From IMG/VR virus record IMGVR_UViG_3300009678_001574: a stretch of DNA of 64,000 bases. One strand, 5' to 3'. A program made the position numbers and the translations under genes. Of the stretch, positions 2,685 through 50,100 are shown one piece after another. Each line of letters begins with the position of its first letter. Position 1 is the stretch's first letter. The notes beneath the pieces are model-generated. The model was not told where the DNA came from, ran no database searches, and worked only from the letters and a program-made list of their open reading frames with translations. This DNA is from a virus.

Positions 2685-3486
2685 AACACTTAAATATGTA
2701 TTAGAAAATGGCGATAAAAGAGAAGACCGTACAGGAACTGGAACAATAGGAATGTTTGGTCTTCAGTCACGATACAACCTCGAAAAAGAATTTCCTGCCG
2801 TTACAACTAAACGTTTATTCTTTAAAGGTGTGGTACATGAACTGCTTTGGTTCTTAAAAGGTGATACTAACGTAAAATACTTACAAGACAACGGCGTCCG
2901 TATTTGGGATGAGTGGGCAAATGAAAGTGGCGAACTTGGCCCTGTATATGGTAAGCAATGGAGAAAGTGGGAAGAGTACGGTTATCATCCCGACTACGAC
3001 AAAGAACCCTCTTACATAGATCAGATTGCTGGTGTAATTAAGTCTATAAAAGAAAATCCTAATTCGAGAAGACACATAGTATCAGCATGGAATGTGGGAG
3101 AATTAGAGTACATGAAACTCCCTCCGTGCCATACGATGTTCCAATTCTATGTAGCAAATAATAAATTATCCTGCCAATTGTATCAGCGTTCTGCTGATAT
3201 GTTTTTAGGCGTACCCTTCAACATAGCATCCTATGCCTTATTAACCCATATGATTGCTCAAGTATGTGGATTGGGAGTAGGCGACTTTATACATACGATA
3301 GGTGATGGTCATATATATCTAAACCATTTGGATCAGGTAAAGCAACAATTATCACGTGAGCCTTTACCAGCACCTAAACTTTGGTTGAATCCAGAAATAA
3401 AAGATATTGATTCGTTTAAATATGAGGACATAAAATTGGTGGGCTACGAAAGCCATTCTTCTATCGCAGCACCAATAGCAGTATAA
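2668..3486 (+). CDS. thyA: Thymidylate synthase
   Basis: [49 protein letters not shown]. Confidence 0.97.
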
Positions 3487-3847: not shown

Positions 3848-4332
3848 TATCAATGATAGCGGCGATGACTGATAATAGAGTCATCGGCAAGGATAATGAA
3901 TTACCCTGGCATGTACCCGAAGATCTAAAATGGTTTAAAGAACAAACGGCGGGCAAACCAGTATTAATGGGACGCCGAACGCACGAATCTATTGGCCGAG
4001 TGTTAAAGGGTAGAGACAACCTAGTTATTACAAATAACAAAAGCTATAAGCCGTTACACGAATCGGTTAAGGTGTATAATAAGTTAGATGATGCTATAAA
4101 ATTATACCAAGGCGAAAAAGAGCTCGTAGTAATAGGTGGGCAGCAGATATATGAGCAATGTCTCAAATATTCATCAAGAATATACCTCACAATATTTCAC
4201 ACTGATATAGAAGGCGACGCATTTTTCCCAGAAATAGATAATAAACAGTGGAAGTCGAACATGATTAAAGCTGTAACTGACAGCCCCATTGTTAATTTTA
4301 ATTACGAATTTTATATATTAGAAAGGGTTTGA
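3844..4332 (+). CDS. folA: Dihydrofolate reductase
   Basis: NRVIGKDNELPWHVPEDLKWFK, MGRRT.ESIGR.L..R, VIGG.QIY, GDAFFP. Confidence 0.96.
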   Translation: MISMIAAMTDNRVIGKDNELPWHVPEDLKWFKEQTAGKPVLMGRRTHESIGRVLKGRDNLVITNNKSYKPLHESVKVYNKLDDAIKLYQGEKELVVIGGQQIYEQCLKYSSRIYLTIFHTDIEGDAFFPEIDNKQWKSNMIKAVTDSPIVNFNYEFYILERV

Positions 4333-16110: not shown

Positions 16111-19100
16111 AGCCAGAGATATTTGTAACCTATTTCTTGTTGCTGTCAGGTAAAGGTATAATTGAAAAGGTAAGGGAACAAACTGTTAAAATGATGATGG
16201 AGTATCGTCGCTCGGAAGACCCTGCCATAAGAGTTGCGTATCAAATGTTAGTTCTCGATGCACTCAAAAGGTGTAAGTATAGAGAGGACGATGTCAATAG
16301 GCTATTGAGTATGCCAGAAGACTGGGATAGTTTTATAAGCAATTATAGGTAAATTAATCAACAATTACCTGATTTTAGGAGTTTTTGTGAGACCAACAAT
16401 ACAGATGATAGAGCCAGAGATATACGCAACTTATAGGCTGATACTTGATAATAATATATCACCACAGCGCGCCATAAGACTCTGGGCTGATACCAAAAGC
16501 ACTTATTACGAAAACAATACAGGCCGCGGTAAGTTGAAGATTATTTTAGGCCAATATATACAAGACTTTTGGGCTAAATGTAATACCAAAGAGATGTCAG
16601 AAGATAAGGAAGTAATTGAATTCATAAGGAAATTTCAACCAAAGCCATGGTGGAAACTCTGGTAATGACAACCATAGACGCCAAGGTATATGTCACTTAT
16701 AAGTTGTACTTTGATTGGAATTTTAAACCAAAAGATGTACAACATTACTGTGCTTGGTGGAAGTTTTTAGGTGGAATGGAGCGGTCAAATAGAGATTCGG
16801 TAATCAGTATAACTCAAAGAGCACTATACGAATACTATATGAAGACTCCCTTAGCGCTTCAGAATTTAGACGGAATTGATATAGTAAAGTTCATTCTTAG
16901 ACACCAATTTGATACCACTTGGGCCCGTATAAAAAACATCTTTTGGGGCGTTGGAGCTATTGTATTAAAAACTATATTCGGCGTGTAAGCCATTGAGTAA
17001 AATACATAGCCAACTATTTGATATTGTTGGATAATTTGGAACTTTAAACGAACACTAGGAAAATGAAAGAATTGTATAAAACAACCTGATTTTTACACAA
17101 TCATAAAGGCATTGTAAGTCCTTGATATTATTAGATAATTTCAACTCACTTTATACGGTGGTCTTTCATGAACGAAGCAATCAAAGAAATATACGCGGCA
17201 GCCCTCAAACACAAGAACAAATTGGAGCTACACGACACACACGACGGCGGCTACGAGGTTGAGGTCATACTGAACTTTGAGGAGTTGTCTTACCGCTATC
17301 GATTGCCAAGACCAACTGGAGAACTCAAAGATGAAACGGATTGATGACGAGGTTAGACTTTGTTACATCTTCGTTCTAACAGAAGGACGTATGATGAGGA
17401 ACCACTATGAAGACGACCGCGGTATCTACGTCGCAGTCTTGAACTCGAAGAAGCTACCAATACCTATCGACGTTTACTTATTGGAGAAGAGATGAACTAC
17501 GAACTACAAGATATATACGGCGCTCACTTCAAGGGCTTACGCTTTGAGTTCGTCCAAGCGCGGTATAATGAGTTCCAAGTTACTATCATCGAAGAGCAGG
17601 ACAAAGGCTGGCTAACAAGAACAGTCTTCGGTCTTACGCCAGAAGGAATAGGGCCGCCGCTCTTTATAAGTGAGATGCCATGGCCGAAGTGATGCCCGAC
17701 GAGCTATACGACTTATACCGTTTCGTGCTAGAGGACGGCTGGGTAATAGACCAGCACGAGCTTACGGTATTCTTGAGAGAGCCACTAACAGAAGACTTAG
17801 AACCAGTTGTTGTCTACCTACAACGCTTTACCTATGAGCCAAAGAAATGAGCCTAGATTCAACCTTACTACAGCTACAACAAATCTTTGGTAATAGCATT
17901 CACGCCTTGTACCAATACCACTTCCACAACTATACGTTCCTCCAAGACGGGCTAAAGGTGACTGTCGTATTCCACGAGAACAGCATACCGCATGAGATAA
18001 CCTTGGTAAACCTAGATGTTGGATGAAGGCTTTAAGTGTTTGTACTCGCTCTTATTAACGGGCAAACCAATGGTTACTGATATGATTTGGGACGAGCAGT
18101 TCATACACGTTTTCACCCAGGACGGCTTCATACACTTGGATTTCGTGGCTAGGCGATTAGAGGTCTATGGCACTAGGTTCTACGCAGGCCAACTAATACT
18201 CCCGGCGGCTGGAGACTATTCGATTTCTATTAAGGAGAATTTCTTTGGATAGAGAGATAATGCACACTTATGAGCTGTTCTTAGGGCGCTATATTATTAA
18301 CGACGGACGCATTAACAAGGTAGTTAAATTCCCCTTTTATGCTTGCGGCGGTACTTGTCAATCAGGGATAAGCGGAACTAAAGTTATCTTTTGCACCAGT
18401 TGTAAGTACCCAGAAGGACACTATTGTTATATAGACTACGTAACTGGTATTACCTATGAGACCAGAGACTCATCATTACAAACGCCTTATTGGATATTGG
18501 AGGCTAGGAAGAAGCGTGAAGCTATACCACAAGAAGCGACCTAATCGTTATTATAACTTAAAAGACTTATATATTTTTGTATTCGACGGCTATGAGATAG
18601 AGGAAGCTGAGGTAGTAGAACATTCAAAGACTATAGCTGTTAGTTTCAAATTTCCTAATGAGCCTAGGTGCACAGGAGCGGCTTTCAGGACGGACACACG
18701 AGATGAGCTTGTTAGGAAAGCGTAAGCCTGGAGAGCCCAACACCTTAAAGGACCTATACCGCCACTTACTAGAACAGGGCTTCAAAATAACCGATTATAC
18801 TATCGAACCAAATACTTTATTGATTAATTTAAAGATAACCAAGAAGACTACGTGGGCTATATTGGAGAGATTCGAAACACATCTATGAGCATATTACCTA
18901 AACAAAAAGACCTATTTACCAATACGCCTCATCAATCTGTATTAGGCTTATATAAAGCTGTCTTAATACACAAGCAGCCGGTTAAAGAGGCGATTAATGC
19001 TCTACCTAGTTTCAGTTCTTTTTCTATAGGGTCAGACGGGATAGTAGAGTTGTTTCATATATTCGATATGCGTGCCTATTTTGAACGAACGGGCTACGAT

Positions 19101-19398
19101 ATAACAAAGAACCAATGACTAAAGAACACAAGCAGTTATACCTAAACCTTTTATTGGGCTTTAAGGTGGTAGAATCGAGCTGGATAAGTATTCAGGGCGT
19201 TAGGTATTATAAAGTGAGTGTAACGGGACCAGATTCCATACCACCTCACAATACAACTATTTACTTGTGGAATCCATGACAAACCGATTATTCGATACCA
19301 TTAGGTTGTTAAGAGTCTATAGGGCCGTATTAGAGGAGCAATTACCACTAACAGAAGCTTTGTATTACTATTTACCCGAACTGTCTATATACTTATAA
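16107..19398 (+). CDS. Second block of hxxhYxxxL-family ORFs (16107-16352, 16387-16665, 16665-16988, 17168-17344, 17331-17495, 17492-17692, 17692-17850, 17847-18026, 18016-18252, 18245-18544, ~18520-18725, 18703-18888, 18885-19118, 19115-19279, 19276-19398)
   Basis: Hand translation including sub-60-aa ORFs; mostly overlapping or abutting start/stop junctions, many ATGA overlaps; shared N-terminal Tyr-Leu helix. Confidence 0.6.
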
Positions 19399-19435
19399 AC
19401 ACTTATACAACTGCTATATAAGCAATTATCCACCG

Positions 19436-19460
19436 AGGCCCTTTTTAGGGCCTTTTTTAT
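19436..19460 (+). terminator. Intrinsic terminator closing the AT-rich region
   Basis: aggccc-ttttta-gggcct followed by ttttt. Confidence 0.75.
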
Positions 19461-19504
19461 TTAAATATACCTATAAACCTGCGGTGGCGGTGGGTCTGCA
19501 AAGT

Positions 19505-19730
19505 TTGCATAGTGCGCAATCCGGAATCGCTGGCCTGTATAACCTTTTTGCATATCCCGCAACTTTTGCATACAACGCAGCGGAATGCGGTAGGAAAAGA
19601 TTGCATACCTCGCAAACATTGCACAATCGCCACGAATTGCGGACCCGGAAAAGATTGCATACGTCGCAAAAATTGCATACCGCGCAGGCCAAAACGGCGC
19701 CGAACCACGCAAAAATTGCATACGTCGCAA
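19505..19730. repeat. Array 1 of TTGC-N7-GCAA palindromes
   Basis: Perfect copies at 19505, 19548, 19601, 19655, 19716; imperfect at 19566, 19619, 19673. Confidence 0.9.
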
Positions 19731-19741
19731 GTTTTTTTTTC

Positions 19742-19771
19742 TTGACAACGCACCGCGTCATGCGGCAAAAT
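19742..19771 (+). promoter_or_regulatory. Sigma70-like promoter P1 with palindrome in spacer
   Basis: TTGACA-ACGCACCGCGTCATGCGG(18)-CAAAAT. Confidence 0.6.
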
Positions 19772-19867
19772 GGTCGCACAATCGAGGCAAGGCTAGCGGC
19801 ATGGTGCCGCTAATGCCTCGGGAAAGGTATCTCGCAAAATTTAACGCACCGCGTCGGTCGAATTTGC

Positions 19868-19897
19868 TTGCTAACGCGGTGCGGCATGTGAGATACT
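19868..19897 (+). promoter_or_regulatory. Sigma70-like promoter P2 with palindrome in spacer
   Basis: TTGCTA-ACGCGGTGCGGCATGTGA(18)-GATACT; another copy of the palindrome 30 bp upstream (19844). Confidence 0.5.
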
Positions 19898-19952
19898 TGG
19901 AAAATCAACAACGGGCAAGGCATGACGCCAGGCCCACGAAAGGGAAAGCACA

Positions 19953-20228
19953 ATGAACACCGTCCAGACCAGCACCGTCCCCGCCATCGTCGAGACCCCG
20001 GAGCAGGAGCTCACCCGTCTCCGCGCCGAGAATGAGGCGCTCAAGGCTGTCAAGGCCCAGGGTATCAAGGGCATGAAGGTGAGCGAGAAGGGCGCCTTGT
20101 CCATCTACGGCCTCGGTCGCTTCCCGGTCACGCTGTACCGTAGCCAGTGGGAGGCCCTGCTCGCCAAGGCGGAGGACATCAAGGCCTTCATCGAGGCGAA
20201 CGCGGCGAAGCTCAAAGCCAAGGAGTAG
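19953..20228 (+). CDS. Early protein A; coiled coil plus PC4-like beta module
   Basis: GC-rich codons; KVSEKGALSIYGLGRFPVTLY..QW; fold assignment is inference. Confidence 0.75.
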   Translation: MNTVQTSTVPAIVETPEQELTRLRAENEALKAVKAQGIKGMKVSEKGALSIYGLGRFPVTLYRSQWEALLAKAEDIKAFIEANAAKLKAKE

Positions 20229-20232
20229 CTCA

Positions 20233-20303
20233 GGCCGAAACCTAGGGCGCGCTAGTACAGGCGCCCGATGGTCTACGGGTATGGTGCCCGTACTGAGGAG
20301 GCC
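20233..20303 (+). ncRNA. Hammerhead ribozyme (type II, open stem II); predicted cut after 20273
   Basis: GGCC-GAAAC ... GUC / UACGGG-7nt-CCCGUA (stem I) / CUGAGGA-GGCC; complete CUGANGA, GAAA and GUC core. Confidence 0.9.
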
Positions 20304-20306
20304 GTC

Positions 20307-20546
20307 ATGGAAGGTTTGCACGTCGAGTTGCGCCGTCTGCGCATGAAGCCAGCGCCCATGCCCGTGAGTCCGCGTGAGGCTGTCGAGCCCACGCCTACGC
20401 CTGCCGCCGTCAAGGTGGTCAAGGTGTTCAACTCGGGTAGCGCCGAGGAGCGGAAGTTTGCCGAGAACATGGCGGTTATCGCCACGGCCTACCGCAACGG
20501 GCTCATCACGGAAGCCAAGGCCCAGGAGCTCGCGGCCAGACTGTAG
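20307..20546 (+). CDS. Early protein B
   Basis: GC-rich codons; RBS GAGGAG lies in the hammerhead core. Confidence 0.6.
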   Translation: MEGLHVELRRLRMKPAPMPVSPREAVEPTPTPAAVKVVKVFNSGSAEERKFAENMAVIATAYRNGLITEAKAQELAARL

Positions 20547-20580
20547 GACACACATACACACACACCTATGCGTGTGTGTC

Positions 20581-20645
20581 GGGATGCAAGCTATCACCTC
20601 CGCGTGGTGCATCCTGGGCAGGCATGGTGCCTGGCTAACGATGGC
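20581..20645 (+). ncRNA. HDV-like ribozyme 1; predicted cut between 20580 and 20581
   Basis: P1 GGGAUGC/GCAUCCU (G1.U wobble), P2 GCUAUC/GAUGGC, P3 ACC/GGU, L3 UCCGCGU, P1.1 CC/GG, P4 CAGGCA/UGCCUG, J4/2 GCUAAC with catalytic C20635. Confidence 0.9.
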
Positions 20646-20659
20646 AGAAAGTCACGGTC

Positions 20660-20857
20660 ATGTGTCGTGCGGACATTCGACGCCGCGTGGTAGCGGTGTT
20701 GGCCAACGGGTCTATGGGTCCGGGCGCCTTGCAAGATACGCTCTTCGACTTGGAGAGCCGCGAGGTGGCACGGGAATTGCGCGAGCTTGTGAAGCGCGCC
20801 GCCGTGAAACACAACGGCAAGGTCGGTCGCGGCAGTAGGTATGCCCGCGCCGTGTAG
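20660..20857 (+). CDS. Early protein C, small winged-helix-like
   Basis: VVAVLANG.M....L...L...VARELRELVK..AV...G..R...Y; fold is inference. Confidence 0.6.
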   Translation: MCRADIRRRVVAVLANGSMGPGALQDTLFDLESREVARELRELVKRAAVKHNGKVGRGSRYARAV

Positions 20858-20868
20858 GACATACGCCG

Positions 20869-21096
20869 TTGCACACTACGCAACGGTAGGACGGTAAGCA
20901 ATCTGCCTCCGCGTGGCACCGTCCGGGTAACGCTAAAGATTGCACAGTAGGCAAAGGTTGCATAGTACGCAACTCTTGCACACTGACACACACATACACA
21001 TGCACCTAGTTGCATAGTACGCAATCGTTGCGTACCCAGGACGAAGTGGCGTGCTCGCAGAAATTGCGTAGCCCGCAAACTTTGCATACCTGGAAA
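20869..21096. repeat. Array 2 of TTGC-N7-GCAA palindromes
   Basis: Perfect copies at 20869, 20940, 20958, 21010, 21064; imperfect or half sites at 20976, 21028, 21082. Confidence 0.9.
20889..20943 (+). ncRNA. HDV-like ribozyme 2 (minimal P4); predicted cut between 20888 and 20889
   Basis: P1 GGACGGU/ACCGUCC, P2 GCAAUCU/AGAUUGC, P3 GCC/GGC, L3 UCCGCGU, P1.1 CC/GG, J4/2 GCUAA with C20933. Confidence 0.85.
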
Positions 21097-21105
21097 GTGT
21101 GTGTG

Positions 21106-21180
21106 ACGCGGTGCAGCAAAATTTTGACGCGGTGCGTCGGTCGATTTTTGTTGACAACGCGGTGCGTCAAGCGGCAAAAT
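21106..21180 (+). promoter_or_regulatory. Sigma70-like promoter P3 with three ACGC-N3-GCG operator-like sites
   Basis: TTGACA(21151)-ACGCGGTGCGTCAAGCGG(18)-CAAAAT; sites at 21106, 21127 and 21157. Confidence 0.65.
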
Positions 21181-21233
21181 CGGTTTCACAATCGGCGCAA
21201 CGGAAACGGCGCCGCCAAGGGAAAGGACACGGC

Positions 21234-21437
21234 ATGACACTGACACCGGCTTATGGTCGGGACTACAAGAGCAAGGCAGAGGTCGAGGCAGCCTGGGACG
21301 GCGGTAAGGATTTCCAGATTGCCAGCGTGGGGCCGTGGATGGGCTCCTACGTGACCAAGCGGGAGCTGGCGGGTAACGAGAAGGAAGTAAGCATCCGTTA
21401 CGCCAAGCTCTCGAAGGTGGTAGTCCTGAAGGTGTGA
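21234..21437 (+). CDS. Early protein D
   Basis: MTLTPAYGRDYKSKAEV...GKDF; GAAAGGA RBS; GC-rich codons. Confidence 0.75.
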   Translation: MTLTPAYGRDYKSKAEVEAAWDGGKDFQIASVGPWMGSYVTKRELAGNEKEVSIRYAKLSKVVVLKV

Positions 21438-21462
21438 ACGCAGGGCCGGCTAGTACAGCGGC

Positions 21463-21549
21463 CCTAGTCTAAAGCAGCCGGCAGTAGTTAGGCCGCCAGT
21501 CCAAAGCCTGGGAAAGCTCCTAACGGAGTTCAATGCTGATGGGACCTAG
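21463..21549 (+). ncRNA. Twister ribozyme 1; predicted cut 21470/21471
   Basis: U^AA-AGC-A-GC, P3 CGGC/GCCG, P4 CCAG/CUGG, L4 UCCAAAGC, P5, then GCU-GA-UGGG; P2 AGC/GCU and T2 UCCA/UGGG covary relative to other copies. Confidence 0.85.
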
Positions 21550-22155
21550 TAGTGAGGCTTAGTGAGTAGGTAAGGGCGTAGGTAGTTACTGCCACGTTCG
21601 AGACTCAGGCGAAAGTCAGCCAGGTCGAAGGCGTAGCATATACCGACGATAACCTCCAAGGGGCTAAGTAAGCGAACGGCGGTGTTGGCAGCGTGAGCCG
21701 TAATCATGCTGTAGTCTGGTAAGCGGGACTTTAACTCGGCTAGGTGGTGACTCTCACTCGTGTTGGTAGCCACGTTACGGTTGCCCGGTGACTAGGACTC
21801 GCATGGGAATCAGCCCTGCCTAGACAACTTCACAGAGCTTCGGCTCTTGGATTCTATCAGCTTGCGCTTCTGGTAAGGCATATAGCTTTACTCGAAGGCG
21901 TGGTTAGTGGGCTGATAGTCTTACGCTCTCGCAGTTAAAGAGAGCACGCACATGACCACACTCCTCGTTAGGCTTAGATTATGCTAAGCCACGAAAAACT
22001 CGCTTGGTGAGTGGGCCTATTTGGCTGACACCACAAGCCTGCGAGCGGAGTAGTGGTGGCGTGTTTTCGCCAAGCCTAACGAGCGCTTTAGGGGCCGCGC
22101 AGTTCAACCGCGCAATGGTCCCAGAGTTGTGGGTTACCTTGGTGCAAGAAAACCC
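21546..22155 (+). ncRNA. Candidate large structured ncRNA between twisters 1 and 2
   Basis: No convincing long ORF; long-range helices 21574-82/21920-28, 21854-61/21911-18, 21964-75/22072-83; UUCG hairpin 21834-47. Confidence 0.55.
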
Positions 22156-22220
22156 TCGTAATGCGGCAAGCGTATGCTTACGGTCACAAGCCCGTGTAAA
22201 CGCAGAGTGAGAAAGACGAG
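22155..22220 (+). ncRNA. Twister ribozyme 2; predicted cut 22159/22160
   Basis: U^AAUGCGGC, P3 AAGC/GCUU, P4 ACGG/CCGU, L4 UCACAAGC, GCA-GA-GUGA (T2 UCAC/GUGA). Confidence 0.92.
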
Positions 22221-22222
22221 TC

Positions 22223-22435
22223 ATGGATTACTCGTATCTGAAGCATTTGTCCGATGCTCAGTTGCGTACACTCAAGGTCCGGTACGCAATGGCAAAGGGC
22301 AACAGTTGGGAACACAAGCTCTTTTGCGCCGTGGATAGAGTGCTTACCGACCGCGAAGGCGTAACGCACTTCAAGACCGGGCGCATGGGAGACTGCCTGC
22401 ACATGGACCCACTCATGAACCCGAAAGGAATCTGA
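22223..22435 (+). CDS. Early protein E
   Basis: 70-aa ORF directly after twister 2. Confidence 0.6.
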   Translation: MDYSYLKHLSDAQLRTLKVRYAMAKGNSWEHKLFCAVDRVLTDREGVTHFKTGRMGDCLHMDPLMNPKGI

Positions 22436-22438
22436 CCG

Positions 22439-22882
22439 ATGAGCACACAGGAACCCAAAGACAAACCCGGAGTCGTCAACGGCTCCTTCGTCCGCAAAGA
22501 CTTCTACCTCTCACCGCCCGTCAAGGGAGCGCCGGTGGAAGCGTGGGAAGCCTGGCAGAAAGCGGACGACTTGCTTGCCGCCAACGCCAAGCGGAAGCAC
22601 ACCAAGAGCCTCAAGCACGAAGAGGTGCCTGAGTTCCTCCAGCCCAAGGTGCTTAGCAAGGTTGGCGGCGTCTACCGGCAGTCGGCGATGGTGGGCTTCA
22701 TCGGGGACGGAGATACCGCCCGAGTGGAAGCGGCCGTGGATGCCGAGCAGGGCAAGGTGCTGGCGCTCAACTCCTTCCGTCATGGTGGGCGTGGGCAGCA
22801 GACCGCTAGTCGCTCTGGTTCGGCCAAGCGTGCAGCTCGACGGGCAGCGAAGGAAGCCCGCCGCAAGAATACTCGGCACTAA
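22439..22882 (+). CDS. Early protein F (basic C-terminal tail)
   Basis: GC-rich codon usage. Confidence 0.7.
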   Translation: MSTQEPKDKPGVVNGSFVRKDFYLSPPVKGAPVEAWEAWQKADDLLAANAKRKHTKSLKHEEVPEFLQPKVLSKVGGVYRQSAMVGFIGDGDTARVEAAVDAEQGKVLALNSFRHGGRGQQTASRSGSAKRAARRAAKEARRKNTRH

Positions 22883-22901
22883 CACACAAGGGCGCTCACC
22901 C

Positions 22902-22970
22902 GCCCGCTAATGCAGCCTGGAGCAATCCCGCTCTAGCCAGTCACAAGCCTGGATAAATGCAGAGTGGCAT
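22902..22970 (+). ncRNA. Twister ribozyme 3; predicted cut 22908/22909
   Basis: U^AAUGCAGC, P3 CUGGAGC/GCUCUAG, P4 CCAG/CUGG, L4 UCACAAGC, GCA-GA-GUGG. Confidence 0.92.
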
Positions 22971-23040
22971 GTAGGTGGTAGGCACACATATACACACACA
23001 CCTACATACACATACAGTGTGCCAAGAAAGGGTTAAGTAC

Positions 23041-23328
23041 ATGACTGCTACCGAATTTCTCAAGAGCAAGAACGTTCCCTTCGATGGCTTGGATGCGGGC
23101 CAGTGCCGCACCATCGCCAAGGCCTACGGCTGGGCTGCTCCGAAGGCGGGCGTCAGCGTGGTGAGCTACACGCCGACCCAGAGCAAGAAGGGTCCGGGCC
23201 TCTACCTCAAGGTGGAGATCGAGGGAGCGCGTGAGGGCATGTTCCGCCTCTGCGACGGCAACGAGCTCACCCCGGCGGCCCGTGAGGTCATCGCCACCAT
23301 CGGCAACGACTGCGCCGACCTGCTGTAA
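23041..23328 (+). CDS. Early protein G
   Basis: ATG at 23041; GC-rich codons. Confidence 0.7.
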   Translation: MTATEFLKSKNVPFDGLDAGQCRTIAKAYGWAAPKAGVSVVSYTPTQSKKGPGLYLKVEIEGAREGMFRLCDGNELTPAAREVIATIGNDCADLL

Positions 23329-23356
23329 GACAAAGGCACCTGGGCAAGTGTAGAAA

Positions 23357-23420
23357 CTGCCCTGTTAATGCGGCCGGGATAGCCCGCAGGTCACAAGCCC
23401 TGGTAAACGCAGAGTGGCAC
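23357..23420 (+). ncRNA. Twister ribozyme 4; predicted cut 23366/23367
   Basis: U^AAUGCGGC, P3 CGGG/CCCG, P4 CAGG/CCUG, L4 UCACAAGC, GCA-GA-GUGG. Confidence 0.92.
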
Positions 23421-23438
23421 CTCAAACCGGGAGTGAGC

Positions 23439-23789
23439 ATGGGAAGCAGCAACCACAAAGGCATGGACACGTACAACCGCATCATCACCGACGCGCGAGC
23501 CACTGGCAAGCCTATCGGTCCGCAGTTCCACAAGTTCGACTTCCAGCGCAAGATATGGGAGAAGATGAACCTCACCCAGCCGGAAGCGAAGGTGCTCACC
23601 CAGACCCGTACCGCCCAAGCCGTCGTGACCAAAGACCAGACCCGAGAGGCCATCAAGGCCAAGCTCACGGTCAAGGTCACAGCGCCACAGCCTCAGTCCC
23701 TCCGCGAGAAGTACCAGGCTGAGCAACTCAAGAAAATCGCGGACGGCTACAAGGTCGAAGAAGGCATCAAGTACGTCAGCAAAGAGTAG
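23439..23789 (+). CDS. Early protein H
   Basis: GGAG RBS; GC-rich codons. Confidence 0.7.
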   Translation: MGSSNHKGMDTYNRIITDARATGKPIGPQFHKFDFQRKIWEKMNLTQPEAKVLTQTRTAQAVVTKDQTREAIKAKLTVKVTAPQPQSLREKYQAEQLKKIADGYKVEEGIKYVSKE

Positions 23790-23975
23790 TCCCACCCACA
23801 CGGAAGGAAAGGACATGCTGCGTAAAATTTAGCGCCAGTGGCTAAGGCGCGGTATAAGTGCCCACCTACTCCCTTGCGCCTGGACTTGGGAATCAGTAGT
23901 TAAAGCAGGCTGGATACACGGGAGCTACTCATGCTCTGCTCGTGACCGTGTATCGAGATATTGTAGGTAGAGCAA

Positions 23976-24038
23976 TGTTGTTAATGCCACCTGCATAGTG
24001 CAGCCGGTTCCAAGTCCGGAGAAGGCAGAGGAACAACA
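23976..24038 (+). ncRNA. Twister ribozyme 5; predicted cut 23982/23983
   Basis: P1 UGUUG/CAACA, U^AA-UGCC-AC, P3 CUGCA/UGCAG, P4 CCGG/CCGG, L4 UUCCAAGU; T1 AC/GU and T2 UUCC/GGAA covary. Confidence 0.92.
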
Positions 24039-24051
24039 CAAGGAGAAGCCA

Positions 24052-24213
24052 ATGCTCAAGCACAGCCTCGGTGACAAGCTCCGCCCGTTCATCCGTGAAA
24101 CCGTCAAGGCCAACGTGGAGAAGGCCAACCCGCATCTCACCAGCAACCCCAAGCTCCTCGACAACGTGACCCGCTCCATCATCACCAAGGGCCTCGCTCC
24201 TCTGTACCTGTAG
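24052..24213 (+). CDS. Early protein I (53 aa)
   Basis: AGGAG RBS right after twister 5; GC-rich codons. Confidence 0.7.
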   Translation: MLKHSLGDKLRPFIRETVKANVEKANPHLTSNPKLLDNVTRSIITKGLAPLYL

Positions 24214-24248
24214 CTCTCCCGCCCTCTATTGGACTCAGAGGCATGTGA

Positions 24249-24323
24249 GTCCTTAATGCGGCTAGGCACGGTCAAAGCCTAGGAGTCCCAAGCCTCCACA
24301 AACGCAGAGGGATACGAAAGGAC
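24249..24323 (+). ncRNA. Twister ribozyme 6; predicted cut 24254/24255
   Basis: U^AAUGCGGC, P3 UAGGC/GCCUA, P4 GGAG/CUCC, L4 UCCCAAGC, GCA-GA-GGGA. Confidence 0.92.
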
Positions 24324-24429
24324 GTGTATGTATCATAAGTAAGCGCCTAGAAAACTAGTAAGGGCGCAACGACAGAAATACTTACCTAGCACACTCACGT
24401 ATACCTAGGCAATGTGCGTGAGTGTGTGA

Positions 24430-24488
24430 CAGTGTAATGCGGCTATGAGTGGTCCCAAGCCCACCTGAGAAACGCAGAGGGAATCACA
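24430..24488 (+). ncRNA. Twister ribozyme 7 (no P3); predicted cut 24435/24436
   Basis: U^AAUGCGGC, P4 GUGG/CCAC, L4 UCCCAAGC, GCA-GA-GGGA. Confidence 0.9.
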
Positions 24489-24502
24489 ACAAAGGAGAAA
24501 GT

Positions 24503-24724
24503 ATGCTCAAGGTCATTGGTGCGATCACGTTGGTCGGTGGCTTGGCTTTCGGTGCGGCCTACTTCGGCGGGTACATCGACGGCAAGGCAGAGGTTCAGGT
24601 CACGGAGCAGGGTCGCAAGGCTGCTTCGGACACTCTTCGTAGCGCGCAGCAGGGCATCAGCAACGGGCTGAACCGTGCGGCTGATGCGGTCCACAGTGCC
24701 GAGGTTCCCAGCACCCAGCGGTAA
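24503..24724 (+). CDS. Early protein J, N-terminal membrane anchor
   Basis: AAAGGAG RBS; MLKVIGAITLVGGLAFGAAYFGG. Confidence 0.75.
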   Translation: MLKVIGAITLVGGLAFGAAYFGGYIDGKAEVQVTEQGRKAASDTLRSAQQGISNGLNRAADAVHSAEVPSTQR

Positions 24725-24914
24725 GTCGTAGGTTACATAGCTAATCATCCGTCGCCGAAAGGGAAAGGGAAAGGGAATAGTACACAAGCGCCAAGTTAAA
24801 GACGCTCTAAGGCGTAAGCCTACTTGAGCACACTAACAGTAACACGGCGCATCCTTTGAACGAGTAGGAACAGGTCGTTGATTAGCGTTTGATTAAAAGG
24901 CGGGTTAAATGTCC

Positions 24915-24995
24915 TGCCTCAATGCAGCTAGATGGATGCCCTATCTGTCTAACGGTCCCAAGCCCGTAAAGCGCAACGCAAATGCAGAGGGTACA
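24915..24995 (+). ncRNA. Twister ribozyme 8; predicted cut 24920/24921 (C^A)
   Basis: C^AAUGCAGC, P3, P4 ACGG/CCGU, L4 UCCCAAGC, small P5 GCG/CGC, GCA-GA-GGG. Confidence 0.85.
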
Positions 24996-25051
24996 TCCTG
25001 GCGAGCAATGGTATGGTTGGTATGGACAGGACCAAAGCCCCAACTGAGAAC

Positions 25052-25120
25052 GCAGTAGGTAGGAAACAAGGCGAGCGGCACGCAAGGTAAGTCCTGCTCC
25101 GCCTACCTACTGCTTTTTTC
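25052..25120 (+). terminator. Terminator closing the ribozyme-rich operon
   Basis: gcagtaggtagg / cctacctactgc 12-bp stem followed by tttttt. Confidence 0.75.
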
Positions 25121-25280
25121 GCTGAAGGCCCGGATATTCTCGGTAGTATGTCTGGTTTTTTATAACAGACATTATTACAGACGATATCTTATAGGCATTG
25201 GTGTGCCTAAATAAAGCCGGTGGGTAGAATATGCACTACCAACTTTTTTAGAAACGCTGTGTAAGCATAAGGAGGTAGGT

Positions 25281-26381
25281 ATGAAGGACACAATCGTTGT
25301 TCAGTTCAAGCCCATCACGACCTACTGCTTCCATATGCGTTTGAACGATTTTCTAGAGGCTGTGCAGAACGGCAGCTTCATAGACGATGACGGACACGGC
25401 TATTTGGCTACTGAAAGCCAAGAATCGTCTGTGCGTGTCAATCCGTCTGATGTAGCTACTACGCTTCTCGAAAACCCTTCCTACTTCGGTTGGGCCACAC
25501 ACGTAGCTTGGTTTAATAAGTAAGGCCCATCCGACTTGGATACGGTGCCTACTCACAGGACCATGGAGGTAGGTATGTCGTGTATCTGCAAGCCCAACGA
25601 CCCGTGTGACTATCACCTTGCTACGTGCATCGTGTGTAGTCCGCGCTGTGTAGGTCATCCGAATAGCGGTCCTGGCTTGCGTGAGCGGCTTTCTCAGTAC
25701 GAAGTTCAATTTGTCTCGCATCGTGGTAATATCGCGGTGGCAAAGAGTTTCGTGGGCTATGACAAAGCCAAGCAAGACAAGGTGAATAATCCAGCTCTGC
25801 CTTTCAACGTAGTGGAGCTGGTCACGCACGGTTCTGTCCGCGCTTCGTTGGTCTGGCGAAACGGTCGGTGGTGCTGATGGATACCTGTTGCATGAGTGAC
25901 TGCCCAAGCCCAAAGCACGCTGACTCATTGCGTGGGTATTGCGCGGAACACCACCTTGCCCACCAGCAGACGTTGCATAACGAATATTTCTCGCTTCCTG
26001 CGTTGCTAGCCGAGCGTAAGCATAAGGCCGAGCAAGGCAACTGGTATCCGGCCAATGGTGGTACGGAAACGCCCTTTCACACACGCAATCGACGCAGACT
26101 GCTGTATTGTTGGCAACCTAGCACTGGCCGACACGCCTACCTAGACTTGGACACGGACTTGATACTGTCCGACTCCGAGGCTCAGATAGCGTTGGGGACG
26201 TAGCATGGACCAAGACCTACCAGAGATAATTACTGTCGATGGCTTGCGTAGTCCATGTGGAACTATCGAGTACTGGGGCCAAGCTACTAGACAACCAGAT
26301 GGCAAATACGTCTGCTACGCTAATGTGGGCGGAATGCTAGCTTTGGTTGAGGTCAGAATCACCACGGAGACTGTTGTGTAA
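25281..26381 (+). CDS. Four small hypothetical ORFs (25281-25523, ~25575-25877, 25877-26203, 26205-26381)
   Basis: RBS-led, coupled ORFs; third contains WYPANGGTE.PF..R..RRLLYCWQP.TG.HAYLD. Confidence 0.6.
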
Positions 26382-26448
26382 ACATCCGGCCTGTAAGCCC
26401 CGACACAGGCTCAAATATGGGGCCTTTTCCTTTCTTTAGGAGACACAC

Positions 26449-26745
26449 ATGGTTGTCTTTACAGTTCGACTTGGCGATGAATCATTCCAGGTTTATCTCC
26501 AAAAGGGATTTTTCTATCCGGATGGTACTCCTGCCATTCGTGCCTTCACCGACCAAGGCGAGCCGTTCGCTAACTTGACCGTAGCCATCGAAGGCACCAA
26601 GCTCAAGCAAGGTGAGTACCTGGTCAAGACTTGGGGCGAGAATCGACAACTGGCTGAGGCTGTTCTAAGGAATAACCTGCTAGTTGATACGGGCCGCCGG
26701 GTTAGGACTGAGTATGTAGAAGCTCAGGTCTGGCGCGAACCCTAA
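26449..26745 (+). CDS. DUF4313-like protein
   Basis: Y.DGTPAI......EPFANLTV ... TG......Y pattern. Confidence 0.45.
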   Translation: MVVFTVRLGDESFQVYLQKGFFYPDGTPAIRAFTDQGEPFANLTVAIEGTKLKQGEYLVKTWGENRQLAEAVLRNNLLVDTGRRVRTEYVEAQVWREP

Positions 26746-26761
26746 ACGCAAGGACACGCAC

Positions 26762-29700
26762 ATGAGTGACACGCATTGTGACGATATGATTCACGAGCCC
26801 ACGCTTCCCCTGTGCGTGCGGTATTTCCTACTCGTTCATCGTCTGCCTGCCATCGACGGTACTTTGATTACCGCGTACAAGGGCGCACCGGAATGCTACG
26901 CTACCTGGAAGGGCAAGCGTGTGCGTCTGGTTATGGCCTCGCGCTTTGGTGACGTAGGCATTACCACCAAACTCCACCACGAGAACGGTTACGAAGAGCG
27001 CGTGTCGCTGGATGCCTTGACCGACTTTGGCGATAAGCCTTAAATCGTGTACGAAAGGCTTTGGAGGACAAGACGCATGGTTCCAATCCGAGCGCATATC
27101 GCTGGTCCCAAGTGTGTAGCTGTCGCGGCTAAAGGAATGTACGGTAAGTGGAACACGCTCTACTTCAAGTGTGAGCCCAAGAAGTTCTACGATGGTGTGA
27201 TTGCCTATCGTCTGGGCGCATACGTTCAAGACGCTTTCCCTTTCCTCACAGCCAACGAACGTGAGTTTTTAATTTCAGGCATCACACCCGCACAGTGGAA
27301 GGCTATCTTCGGTAGTAGCCCACACGAGGAGTAACGAGATGGTGGGTCAAATAGTAGAGCTAACCAAACACTACCACGTAGTATGTGATGGTACGACTCA
27401 CTGGAAACGCATCGGCACGGGTATGGGTGGCCGCCTAGAAGCCATCAAGCTCAAGGCTTGTGACTGCGTAAAGAAGCCCGTTGCCAAGACGTTCAACGGT
27501 TTGATTCCTTCGCTGTAGGAGGCAAAGTGTTCGCACTCAAAGTAATCGGCGTGTGGGCCTGTATGGACGTGTTGCTCGTCTGGGGCTTTCACTACATCGT
27601 TTCGCATCGAGGCTGGTGATGCGCGAAGGCTGGGTAAGCGTTACTCCCGGTTCTATGGGAGCTTGTGCCCTCGCCTTGGACTTGTTCGGACTAGACCGCG
27701 TTGACCCAGGTTGTTGGTTATCGCCAGTCTGGGTGTATGTTGTTGGCTTGTCTGAAGCCGACCTACACGCTGCCGCACAACTACTCAGTGAACGAGGCTT
27801 AACGCTCGGAGGTCAACGTGTCGCTTGATACCCAAAAGACCTACAAGGTCAAAGGCTTCCAGGGTGTAGCCTGTAAGTTCGTTGGTTATCCACAGCGTTG
27901 GGAATCCGACGACTACGCCTACGGACATGGTGAGTGGGTAGATGATACTGATTCCGGTTGCGTACTCGTGGTTATGGTAGGCGACGACCACAAGCATCGC
28001 GTTCCTGAAACCGACTGTACTCCAATCGACGACCTTGACTACTGTGGGGTTTGTGGTCAAATCGGCTGTGCTCATGACGGCAGGGACCGAACGTGACTCC
28101 TTGCTTTGTATGCAAGTATTGCGGCAAGGTGCTCGGGCAAGAACACTTTGAGCAACACTTCATCGACGCTCATGAACACGGTAAGCCCGTGATGCGAGGC
28201 TTTGTCGACGGAGAACGCAAGCCCTTTCGAGTAGTGGTTAGTTAGAAAAGGCTCAACCCAAATTTTTTTGGGAAGGGAAAATCCAAAACGCTGTGTAAGT
28301 GTAAGTCTGCCACAACGGACAAGGCTTAGGCCGGTATTCAATCCGGGTGGGTAGCGCGTGGTTGACCAGGCAGACTTAGGGAGAAGCACATGAAGATGAT
28401 GCTCGTAGTCGAGGCCAAGTTCTTGCCCGTCCCAACCAGTATCAAGGTTCTAGACAATTGGGGCTTTGTAGGTGTAGTGGACGGCGAAGGTACTCCCGTT
28501 GCTGACGGTGAGCATATGTACCTGGAAGGTGAAGCCGCCGATTTCATTCGCTGGCTCGGTGGATACGATGCTGTGTGGCGTACCAAGGACGGCACGTCGC
28601 CCATGTTCCAACAGTTCGAGGCTTGTCACGTACCGCACGAAAAGGTAGCGGCCCTGAAATTATTTGGAGGCTAGATGCGTACTCACTTCTACATCGCCTA
28701 TCGTAACGCCGGTGAGGAACTGGTCGACTCGGTTGGCTGTTTCCCCACGGAGAAGCTCGACCGTAAGTTTCTCCACGATTTGCTGGATGAGTTCATCGAC
28801 GGTCACAAGTTCCCAGGCAATACGCCTGACTTGAACCAGACCTGTTTCCAGCTCAAGATCTGCGACGCTCACAAGGGGTAACTATGAAGCTCGACCAAGC
28901 TACTGTTCACCGAGTATTTCCTGTAGCCTGGCTGCTGGGTTTCGTAGCTGGTATGTTGGTCGTGGTAGGTTGCGCTGCTCAAAGCAAGTACGCTGTTCGT
29001 ACCTGCAAAGACGGGCGTACTGTCCAAGTACTCAAGCCTGTGGTGAGTAACGCTCCACTCAACAAGCTCGTGTTGGATAACCGCACCCGTGAGGCTTGCG
29101 GTGACTGACTTGAGTGATGCGCTGAAATCGTACTTGCAAGCTGCCGAGTCTGTTCGCAAGGCCGAAGCTGAGTGTGCCTACGACCGCAGCTACTTCCTCG
29201 ATTCTGATTATCGCCACTTGGAAGCTACCGAAAAAAGATTCGTAGCTGAGTTGGCCAAGCGCGTAGACCAACACAAGGTTGAGTCTGCTACGGTGTGTGG
29301 TCACTGTAAGCAAAACGATTGCGAAGAGAAAGACTCTGGTTGGTGTTTAGACAACCCTGAATAGGAGGCTGCCGTGGACCAGCGCGACAAGTGGCTTTCG
29401 ATGTTGAACAATGTGAAGGCACAGGGTATGTCGGGCGAAGAGTCCATGAACTCTGAAGGCGCCCACGAAGCCTACCAAAAGTACAAGGGCTGGTACTGGG
29501 TGGAGGTAGGCCACAACGCCTCGCACTGGTTCTGCGTGGGTAGGAACGCGGACTACACACAGTTCGCCGTGTCGTCCAATGAGTACAATCCGTTGGAGGA
29601 CATCGATAACTGCAAAGTCTATCGCGAGTCGTCTGACTTGAGCACCACCTTGGCTGGTGCATACTTGGGGCATCTATAGGTGCCACGCAAATCGAAGTGT

Positions 29701-50017: not shown

Positions 50018-50100
50018 GGGTAGATGGCAGAGCGGCAATTGCAGGAGACTGTAAATCTCCCGCTTCGGCTTCGGAGGTTCGAGTCCTTCTCTACCCACCA
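50018..50100 (+). tRNA. tRNA-Tyr(GUA)
   Basis: GGGTAGA/TCTACCC acceptor, GGAGA-CTGTAAA-TCTCC anticodon arm, long variable arm, GGTTCGAGTCC, encoded CCA. Confidence 0.95.

Follow-up and report, generated by a model that had tools for sequence, protein, structure and literature searches.

The IMG/VR virus record IMGVR_UViG_3300009678_001574 is represented here by one stretch of 64,000 nucleotides (the window), a phage sequence in which every gene lies on one strand, with PHROG matches to thymidylate synthase, an adenylosuccinate-synthetase-like protein of the PurA/PurZ family, an amidase endolysin and an ATPase. Within a block of small early-type genes, two predicted twister ribozymes bound a gene-free stretch at 21471-22159, and comparison with related loci shows that it encodes a real, conserved and intricately folded non-coding RNA (ncRNA) of about 610-690 bases, with no match among known families. 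Self-cleaving ribozymes probably cut this RNA from an early phage transcript. The features of the locus are as follows, clade A being the group of relatives that includes the window.

21151-21180, + strand: sigma70-like promoter TTGACA-18-CAAAAT before gene D, a consensus match only and the probable transcript start
21234-21437, + strand: gene D, 67 amino acids (aa), an open reading frame (ORF) with its translation; upstream neighbour of the RNA in clade A
21466-21546, + strand: twister 1, type P1 (RF03160, 37.9 bits, E = 1.4e-5), predicted cut at 21470/21471
21471-22159, + strand: predicted excised RNA of 689 nt, made up of twister 1 and a 613-nt body (21547-22159), with U^A at the cut sites
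22155-22213, + strand: twister 2, type P1 (RF03160, 56.4 bits, E = 6.7e-11), predicted cut at 22159/22160
22223-22435, + strand: gene E, 70 aa, between the RNA and gene F in clade A only
22439-22882, + strand: gene F, 147 aa with a basic C-terminal tail, the constant downstream neighbour of the RNA

The original prediction, made from the letters of the window, saw no credible long ORF here, and the relatives agree. No + strand ORF of at least 20 aa exists in 21471-22003. The three longest ORFs lie at 22004-22210 on the + strand (68 aa) and at 21546-21773 and 21979-22224 on the - strand (75 and 81 aa), and every candidate frame is interrupted, by stops or frameshifts, in two or more of the related loci L010, L012, L004 and L021; no frame is kept. 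An 11-codon ORF at 21953, whose ATG stands in a CA-rich context, or the ORFs of 68, 75 and 81 aa over the two strands, might be thought to encode small proteins. We give this explanation almost no credence: every ORF is broken in relatives (the ATG at 21953 is ACG in L010), the mini-ORF overlaps the conserved pairings PK2 and P13 described below, and the substitutions are pairwise compensatory rather than codon-periodic. These comparisons show 21471-22159 to be non-coding.

Relatives of protein F lead to the homologs of the RNA. Fifteen of them, at 42-97% identity, are present in a large metagenomic protein collection, and the contigs that encode them carry a gene-free gap upstream of F, of 700-900 nt (1.8 kb in L011). 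By blastn the full-length RNA is found at 88-89% identity in L008, L009 and L010 and at 67% in L003-5, and its first 453 nt at 82% in L012; a nucleotide profile (nhmmer) detects it in every remaining locus. A degenerate pattern built from the best-conserved hairpin recovered seven JGI contigs, six of them new. The total is 17 syntenic loci in metagenomic phage contigs, with 12 distinct full-length sequences, either 67-92% identical to the RNA or within reach of the profile alone, that fall into clade A (the window, L008, L010, L023, L012/L013, L004 and L021) and clade B (L014, L015, L006, L011 and L020/L022). The window itself has one copy. No similar DNA for the RNA was found in GenBank phages, where a search with 19001-27000 gave only an unrelated match of 128 nt. 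IMG/VR, searched with protein F, two short RNA motifs and a long RNA pattern, yielded no relative, the short-motif matches being those of chance. GTDB likewise gave no match to the RNA pattern (185,579 genomes) or to the F profile, and therefore neither a prophage copy nor a clue to the host.

The evidence for structure is comparative, because the folding energy of the single sequence (z = -2.3 on the + strand and -3.3 on the - strand) does not discriminate between the strands. Six sequences were already enough for RNAalifold to give 165 pairs, of which 47 show compensatory double changes. From clade-wise consensus folds, 22 helices were defined in window coordinates and then counted. In clade A (7 sequences, 140 pairs), 91.6% of cells are paired against 83.6% after shuffling, 48 pairs show double changes against 19.6 +/- 3.1, and the covariation score is 0.346 against 0.190. 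None of 500 shuffles reaches any of these measures, and the score is at most 0.094 when the 3′ partner is slid by 1-3 columns. Across all 12 sequences, the 83 pairs in the 12 helices that MAFFT aligns between clades give 87.6% paired cells against 73.8%, 50 double-change pairs against 30 and a score of 0.49 against 0.233, again with 0/500 shuffles as high, although such tests overstate significance somewhat when, as here, the distinct sequences number only 12 and several are close relatives. Among paired cells G-U outnumbers A-C by 107 to 13, which shows that selection acts on the + strand RNA and not on the DNA or the opposite strand. Compensatory changes in excess of shuffled and slid controls, joined with more G-U than A-C, are the general signature of a structured RNA under selection, and with the homologs now collected they bear out the earlier proposal of a large phage ncRNA and show its structure to be conserved. 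Its parts are these:

21558-21668, + strand: 5′ arm, nested helices P2-P6 and an apical loop, the same architecture in the folds with different helix sequences
21615-21621, + strand: 5′ strand of PK1, GUCAGCC, in the apical loop of the 5′ arm, pairing with 22023-22029
21688-21730, + strand: P7 (21688-96/21704-12) and P8 (21713-17/21726-30), with a conserved AGCGAACGG just 5′
21746-21850, + strand: variable central region with Pc1 (21765-71/21779-85), Pc2 (21804-07/21814-17) and the UUCG hairpin P9 (21833-38/21843-48)
21854-21918, + strand: three-tier hairpin P10-P11-P12 with a conserved AUAUA-type loop
21900-09 with 21949-59, + strand: PK2, a 10-bp pseudoknot whose 5′ strand lies in an internal loop of the P10-P12 hairpin
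21926-21944, + strand: small hairpin CUCUC...GAGAG, built round a 14-nt insertion (21923-36)
21964-22083, + strand: domain closed by the 12-bp P13 (21964-75/22072-83), which encloses P14, P16, P17 and the PK1 loop
22023-22029, + strand: 3′ strand of PK1, GGCUGAC, in a loop of the P13-P17 domain; a 7-bp helix between strands 400 nt apart
22086-22124, + strand: hairpin P18-P19, with nine versions of P18 and eight of P19
22131-22155, + strand: 3′-terminal hairpin P20, GGGUU/AACCC, with a conserved UGCAAGAA loop

Single-sequence minimum-free-energy folds of 10-11 of the 12 homologs share the five-tier nested 5′ arm, with L006 clearly different, and P2 and P3 occur in eight and five versions. Since the register of the arm is wrong between clades (P4-P6, clade B) both in MAFFT and in the covariance model (CM) trained on it, these folds and per-helix inspection were used instead of that CM; in the CM alignment R1 of the arm, 78% of cells are paired against 66.5% after shuffling, with 17 double-change pairs (0/500). 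Within clade A, P7 and P8 are paired in 98% and 97% of cells with three versions each, and the clade B alignments contain equivalent hairpins of other sequence. The central region has five versions of Pc1, four of Pc2 and six of P9 in clade A and is larger and differently built in clade B. Among the 12 sequences, P10 and P11 have nine versions each (P11 with 99% paired cells) and P12 has eleven; P13 has ten, its pairing checked by eye in each clade B sequence, and P14 is 100% paired in six versions. P16 and P17 are less certain, as their register varies between lineages. The P20 helix of clade A covaries with GAUAGGG/CCCUAUC in clade B, its low paired count (60%) reflecting the MAFFT register in clade B.

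Several of these elements had been picked out in the original prediction. Its 8-bp helix 21854-61/21911-18 survives within the P10-P12 hairpin (four versions in clade A, nine among the 12 sequences), as do its 12-bp helix, now P13, and its cUUCGg hairpin (21833-48), now P9. Its 9-bp helix 21574-82/21920-28 does not: the complementarity is present in the sequence, but the 3′ strand runs into the 14-nt insertion, which is confined to the window, L008, L010 and L023, and the 5′ strand belongs to the covarying P3/P4. The T-loop-like GUUCAAC is there in the window (22103-09), in the loop of P18-P19, and is specific to it, most relatives having loops of the type AAUAAUAC. A helix P1 given by RNAalifold (21544-50/21739-45) was dropped because it fails in L004 and L021. 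As a separate observation, the P11-P12 hairpin of the window (21866-21897), compared also with L010 and L023, is closer to that of the distant L004 than to that of L008, whose flanking proteins A-E are 96-100% identical; mosaic exchange of whole hairpins, or a turnover quicker than that of the adjacent genes, seems to be at work.

The best-supported long-range interactions are PK1 and PK2, both absent from the earlier reading. PK1 takes the forms GUCAGCC/GGCUGAC, UUCGGCU/AGCCGAA, UUCGGCA/UGCCGAA and AUCGGCC/GGCCGAU, four or five versions among the 12 sequences, and its complementarity is perfect apart from a terminal U-U in L011 (3′ strand UGCCGAU); 95% of its cells pair in one of the alignments (A2). 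For PK2 the value is 96%, with six double-change pairs and ten versions among the 12 sequences. A possible third pairing, of 21861-67 with 22142-48 in the P20 loop, can form in 12/12 sequences, shows no double compensatory change and competes with P10/P11. The sequences are compatible with PK1 as a tertiary contact within one molecule and with PK1 as a link from one molecule to another.

None of this resembles a catalogued RNA. Rfam 15 reports no family on the RNA body at gathering score and none in 21547-22154 in an 8-kb scan at E <= 10; with the laxest filters, a 621-nt body returns only noise at E <= 10 (nqrA-Marinomonas, 18.6 bits against 95.5, E = 2.2). The library searched includes models for GOLLD, ROOL, OLE, HEARO, raiA, RNase P, transfer-messenger RNA (tmRNA) and introns, and ARAGORN finds no tRNA or tmRNA gene in 19000-26000. 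This accords with the original prediction, which recognised no tmRNA, RNase P or group I signature and named GOLLD, ROOL, OLE, HEARO and raiA as large ncRNAs to compare; the Rfam search found no match to these at E <= 10. Nor are the reverse complements of seven conserved single-stranded motifs, as candidate antisense targets, enriched on the + strand of the window. A decayed or unusual self-splicing intron or another mobile RNA element is a further rival explanation: in size and helix number the RNA compares with group I and II introns, and the intergenic region that holds it is a mosaic in which individual hairpins look as if swapped from lineage to lineage. We consider such an origin very improbable, given that no group I, group II or other Rfam model matches at E <= 10, that there is no intron-encoded protein, that D and E are complete on either side with no interrupted host gene, and that the element keeps a fixed genomic position in 17/17 loci with small ribozymes, not splice sites, at its borders.

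Both twisters fall short of the RF03160 gathering score of 67.2 bits, with E-values far beyond chance. Each has the twister core, with a U^AA cleavage site, GCC, the AAGC loop, GAG, helices P1, P2 and P4 and the pseudoknots, as read from a full-length alignment to model positions 1-68 for twister 2 and against orthologs for twister 1. Orthologs of twister 1 score 51-63 bits in L004, L008, L010 and L012, and twister 1 itself carries a 17-nt optional hairpin insertion that is absent from relatives in the alignment; orthologs of twister 2 occur in L004, L008 and L010. The RNA is flanked by two twisters in the window, L008, L010, L023 and L004. Natural twisters tolerate many imperfections (PMC11662667), which is no test of these two. 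Both cut at their own 5′ edge, so that twister 1 would stay on the RNA and twister 2 on the downstream E-F message. The stretch 21471-22159 does lie exactly between the two predicted U^A cut sites, 21470/21471 and 22159/22160, as first proposed. Of the wider proposal that ribozymes define both ends, the 3′ half stands in every lineage, by a twister or an HDV-like ribozyme, and the 5′ half is restricted to clade A, where alone a 5′ twister is found.

At the 3′ border, twister 2 is replaced by an HDV-like element in L012, L013 and L021 of clade A and in all clade B loci:

L014 1208-1276; L012 about 3152-3210; L015 about 1815-1885; L006 about 1733-1805; L011 about 4105-4185: HDV-like elements
L021, L020 and L022, minus strand of the loci: HDV-like elements

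Rfam does not find this element at E <= 0.1 in a 60-kb scan of the relatives; cmscan aligns it weakly to RF02682 (L014 1208-1276, 16.7 bits against a gathering score of 44, E = 3.4). Following that alignment, the architecture was read from the sequences side by side, which share the nested double pseudoknot of HDV-like ribozymes, with P1, P2, P3 and L3, an optional P4 and J4/2. The 7-bp P1 covaries in six versions (CCUGUGC/GCACGGG, CCCAUAC/GUAUGGG, CUUACUC/GAGUAAG, CUCUAGU/GCUAGAG, CCCUAGC/GCUAGGG and CCUUAGC/GCUAGGG) and P2 in three forms (GUGAGU/ACUCAC, GUGAGC/GCUCAC and UGUGUA/UACACA); P3 is an invariant GCC/GGC, P4 is absent or of 3 or 8 bp, J4/2 is CUAA, CCAA or CGAA and so contains C, and L3 is UUGACGU. 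Such an HDV-like subfamily, minimal or with P4, escapes Rfam at usable thresholds; 3′ of it come a CA-rich leader and then the start of gene F. Since the first base of P1 is where HDV-like ribozymes cleave, the cut would fall 1-3 nt after P20, at the same place as that of twister 2 (4 nt after P20 in the window); the predicted distance is 1-4 nt across all lineages. The nearly scar-free 3′ end would thus be the same under two unrelated ribozyme classes, each of which cuts at its own 5′ edge. The replacement of one by the other at the same position indicates that cleavage there, and not a particular ribozyme class, is under selection.

The 5′ side of clade B is built differently, with about 40-130 nt of extra sequence before the RNA core, structured where examined (L014), and a TGGCAC-N5-CTGCA box of the sigma54-type consensus upstream of the RNA in 5/5 loci:

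L014 422-437; L015 1009-1024; L011 3402-3417; L006 945-960; L020 1874-1889 on the minus strand: TGGCAC-N5-CTGCA box

There is no such box near the RNA in the window. A sigma54-dependent promoter is unusual for a phage early region, and a box at this place, if it acts as its consensus suggests, is as expected of a gene in its own right.

These ends bear on the original suggestion that the RNA is circular. Twister cuts leave a 5′-OH and a 2′,3′-cyclic phosphate, and RtcB joins such ends. In clade A both ends would come from twister cuts, and as both ribozymes cut at their own 5′ edge the 3′ end would be nearly scar-free. Closure by a host RtcB-type ligase would be a variant of the explanation preferred below and not exclusive of it. 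We hold it to be unlikely: no conserved helix joins the ends, the putative P1 failing as described; clade B has a promoter-like box in place of a 5′ ribozyme, so its 5′ end would be a triphosphate; and the window has no ORF of ligase size.

Among the neighbouring genes, D has homologs upstream of the RNA at 72-99% aa identity in L003-5, L008-10, L012, L021 and L023, and no Pfam or PHROG match. In clade B an E-like gene lies about 1 kb further downstream, and D and E are moved or absent. F follows the RNA in 17/17 loci, including the six found by the RNA pattern alone, so the adjacency of RNA and F outlasts the rearrangement of D and E. F has neither a Pfam nor a PHROG family (among 48 members of the F family, Pfam matches were isolated and sub-threshold only), and its AlphaFold model is poor (pLDDT 57). 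An exhaustive profile search places it in a family of 112 clusters at 50% identity, 89 of them with E <= 1e-10, with W36, W39 and G77 invariant and a range far wider than that of the RNA. No members were found in IMG/VR, GTDB genomes or GenBank phages, and the family is known from metagenome assemblies only. A match sought by eye between the C-terminal type of F and the hairpin type of the RNA is broken by L023. One distant homolog, P0097 (locus L027, contigs up to 218 kb), has no detectable RNA copy, so the link between RNA and F is real within this lineage and not obligatory for F. In the same locus, L027 4820-5558 is a 740-nt gene-free gap with two tRNA-gene-like sequences, each interrupted by about 100 nt of inserted sequence (5′ halves ...CCCAAUUGGCAGAGGCG, 3′ halves GUAGGUUCGAAUCC...) and, between them, a twister-like element (UAAUGCGGGC...CCCAACCC...AAACGCAGAGGG); ARAGORN finds no tRNA in L027 4820-5558.

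The operon around the RNA is rich in ribozymes. In E-value mode, Rfam gives eight twister-P1 matches on the + strand at 21466-24995 (38-59 bits, E 1e-5 to 1e-11) and, upstream of them, two HDV-like matches and one hammerhead-like match. All of these lie below the curated thresholds, and a scan at gathering score therefore reports only two tRNAs, the Rfam tRNA matches in the window being at 50018 and 51265 only. The sigma70-like promoter match before gene D, whose box pair recurs identically at 19742-19771, is followed by no terminator-like site on the + strand before the RNA; the RNA would thus be part of a D-RNA-E-F transcript, one unit with early-type small genes, in keeping with the early operon first proposed.

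Some further observations concern this operon. CA-rich leaders of the ACACAUACACAC type lie between a ribozyme and the next start codon in the window (20548-20567, 20990-21009 and about 22985-23035) and also 3′ of the HDV-like ribozymes in clade B loci; possibly they are unstructured, translation-enhancing leaders for messages with a 5′-OH. Other gene-free stretches of 115-190 nt stand between operon ribozymes (24316-24430, 23790-23977 and 24725-24915), one of them between twisters 6 and 7, and could be further small excised RNAs. The window also shows a sharp break in composition: its G+C content, 0.35-0.46 up to about 19.5 kb, rises abruptly at about 19.5-20 kb (from about 0.40 to 0.62), stands at 0.62 over 20-21 kb and then falls slowly to 0.44. 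It is at this break that the ribozyme operon and a block of very small genes begin.

An RNA that is always directly upstream of F, within one transcription unit, might instead act in cis, and this is the main rival explanation: a giant leader or spacer that aids ribozyme folding, insulates cistrons or controls the synthesis or stability of the E-F message. The operon is indeed rich in ribozymes and CA-rich leaders that resemble processing or translation modules, and the RNA is not better conserved than the neighbouring genes. We nonetheless consider a cis-acting leader improbable. In every lineage a ribozyme stands between the RNA and F, so that no cis action could follow cleavage. About 600 nt with some 22 covarying helices and two long-range helices go far beyond the need of any known insulator or leader; the other borders of the same operon manage without such an RNA, as does the distant F gene.

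The explanation that we prefer, at a probability of about 80%, is a trans-acting RNA released by ribozymes. The + strand would be transcribed from the promoter-like site at 21151 into a polycistronic early-type transcript with gene D, the RNA and genes E and F. Twister 1 would cut at 21470/71 and remain as the 5′ domain of the RNA, and twister 2 would cut at 22159/60, four bases after the terminal hairpin, and depart with the downstream message. This would yield a separate RNA of about 690 nt, to which the known chemistry of twister and HDV-like ribozymes would give a 5′-OH (in clade A) and a 2′,3′-cyclic phosphate. It would fold into about 22 helices tied together by the 7-bp loop-loop helix PK1 and the 10-bp pseudoknot PK2, and with the folded twister 1 and P20 at its ends it should be shielded from end-dependent decay. 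Such a stable structured RNA would act in trans, its most likely form being a ribonucleoprotein (RNP) or an RNA assembly. From the sequences we infer the cleavage itself, the stability, the action in trans and any partner. The small basic protein F next door is the first candidate partner, although its binding to the RNA is doubtful in our estimate. Rather unlikely, but attractive by analogy with the kissing loops of ROOL and GOLLD, is an RNA that oligomerises, PK1 pairing between molecules and so chaining or closing a homo-oligomer with or without F. If so, large amounts of the RNA would be produced within minutes of the start of infection, and the keeping of two ribozyme classes at one 3′ position would mean that assembly or end-joining requires a 3′ end that is exact and free of scar.

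Several points weigh against the release of a trans-acting RNA. All twister matches are under the Rfam gathering score and their cleavage is predicted only. Every gene border in the operon bears a ribozyme, and those beside the RNA are thus not specific to it. Clade B has no 5′ twister, the distant F homolog has no RNA copy, and the close relationship of several sequences somewhat inflates the shuffle tests. The RNA is also no more conserved than its neighbours, being 92% identical to that of L008 against 99% for D and 95% for E, and 67% identical to that of L004 against 82% for D.

To our knowledge, very few large, highly structured ncRNAs are known in bacteria and phages, and those so far described that we are aware of (RNase P, tmRNA, group I and II introns, OLE, ROOL and GOLLD) are all a ribozyme, an RNP core or an RNA-only assembly. 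With the present RNA a new family joins them, and its fold is well constrained: no more than 12 sequences support about 22 helices and two long-range pairings. The RNA is small enough for in vitro transcription and its ribozyme borders should give homogeneous ends, so that probing and cryo-EM could use it as it is. That an HDV-like ribozyme has taken the place of a twister, at a position matched to the nucleotide level, amounts to a natural experiment of a rare kind, and the RNA offers a concrete substrate for the open question of what purpose ribozyme-studded early phage operons serve.

The RNA family is new, and the broader phenomena around it have precedents in large ornate phage RNAs, in ribozyme-punctuated operons and in the trimming of tRNAs by HDV-like ribozymes (PMC10879173). 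In the literature we found no description of a large ncRNA as cargo between ribozymes or of a swap of ribozyme class at one border. Among engineered systems, the Tornado cassettes of Litke and Jaffrey (2019) reportedly yield circular RNA through RtcB from twister-flanked inserts. Like them, the new RNA lies between two twisters that would give 5′-OH and 2′,3′-cyclic phosphate ends; unlike them, it is natural, both its twisters are of the P1 type and cut at their own 5′ edge so that twister 1 stays, it has no end-pairing stem, and in clade B circularisation would not be possible in the same way. Ribozyme-rich phage gene clusters were reportedly described by Weinberg et al. in 2015. The present operon, with its eight twister, two HDV-like and one hammerhead-like matches at gene borders, and those of its relatives are of this kind, whereas the clusters so far described separate protein genes or carry small associated motifs and here two ribozymes enclose a conserved 613-nt ncRNA. 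In phage clusters, twister, hammerhead and HDV-like ribozymes have been reviewed as lying between genes (PMC6765202). Theta ribozymes, which are minimal HDV-like ribozymes, adjoin phage tRNA genes and trim the tRNAs (PMC10879173). In L012, L013, L021 and clade B, an HDV-like ribozyme, minimal or with P4, similarly lies directly 3′ of the ncRNA and would trim it to a nearly scar-free 3′ end, but its cargo is a novel RNA of about 600 nt and not a tRNA, its L3 (UUGACGU) differs and its Rfam score is far below threshold. The nearest counterparts of the RNA itself are GOLLD, ROOL and OLE, large ornate ncRNAs of bacteria or associated with phages (Weinberg et al. 2017, PMC5737381). It differs from these in matching no Rfam model at E <= 10, in being flanked by self-cleaving ribozymes within a protein-coding operon and not beside tRNA genes, and in being known so far from one narrow uncultured phage lineage. 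With all three it shares a length of about 600-800 nt, numerous helices that covary and bear conserved loops, and covarying long-range loop-loop pairings, and with GOLLD and ROOL an association with phages. The kissing loops of ROOL and GOLLD were first seen by covariation, as PK1 was here, and proved to be intermolecular bridges (cryo-EM preprint, 10.1101/2024.12.08.627333).

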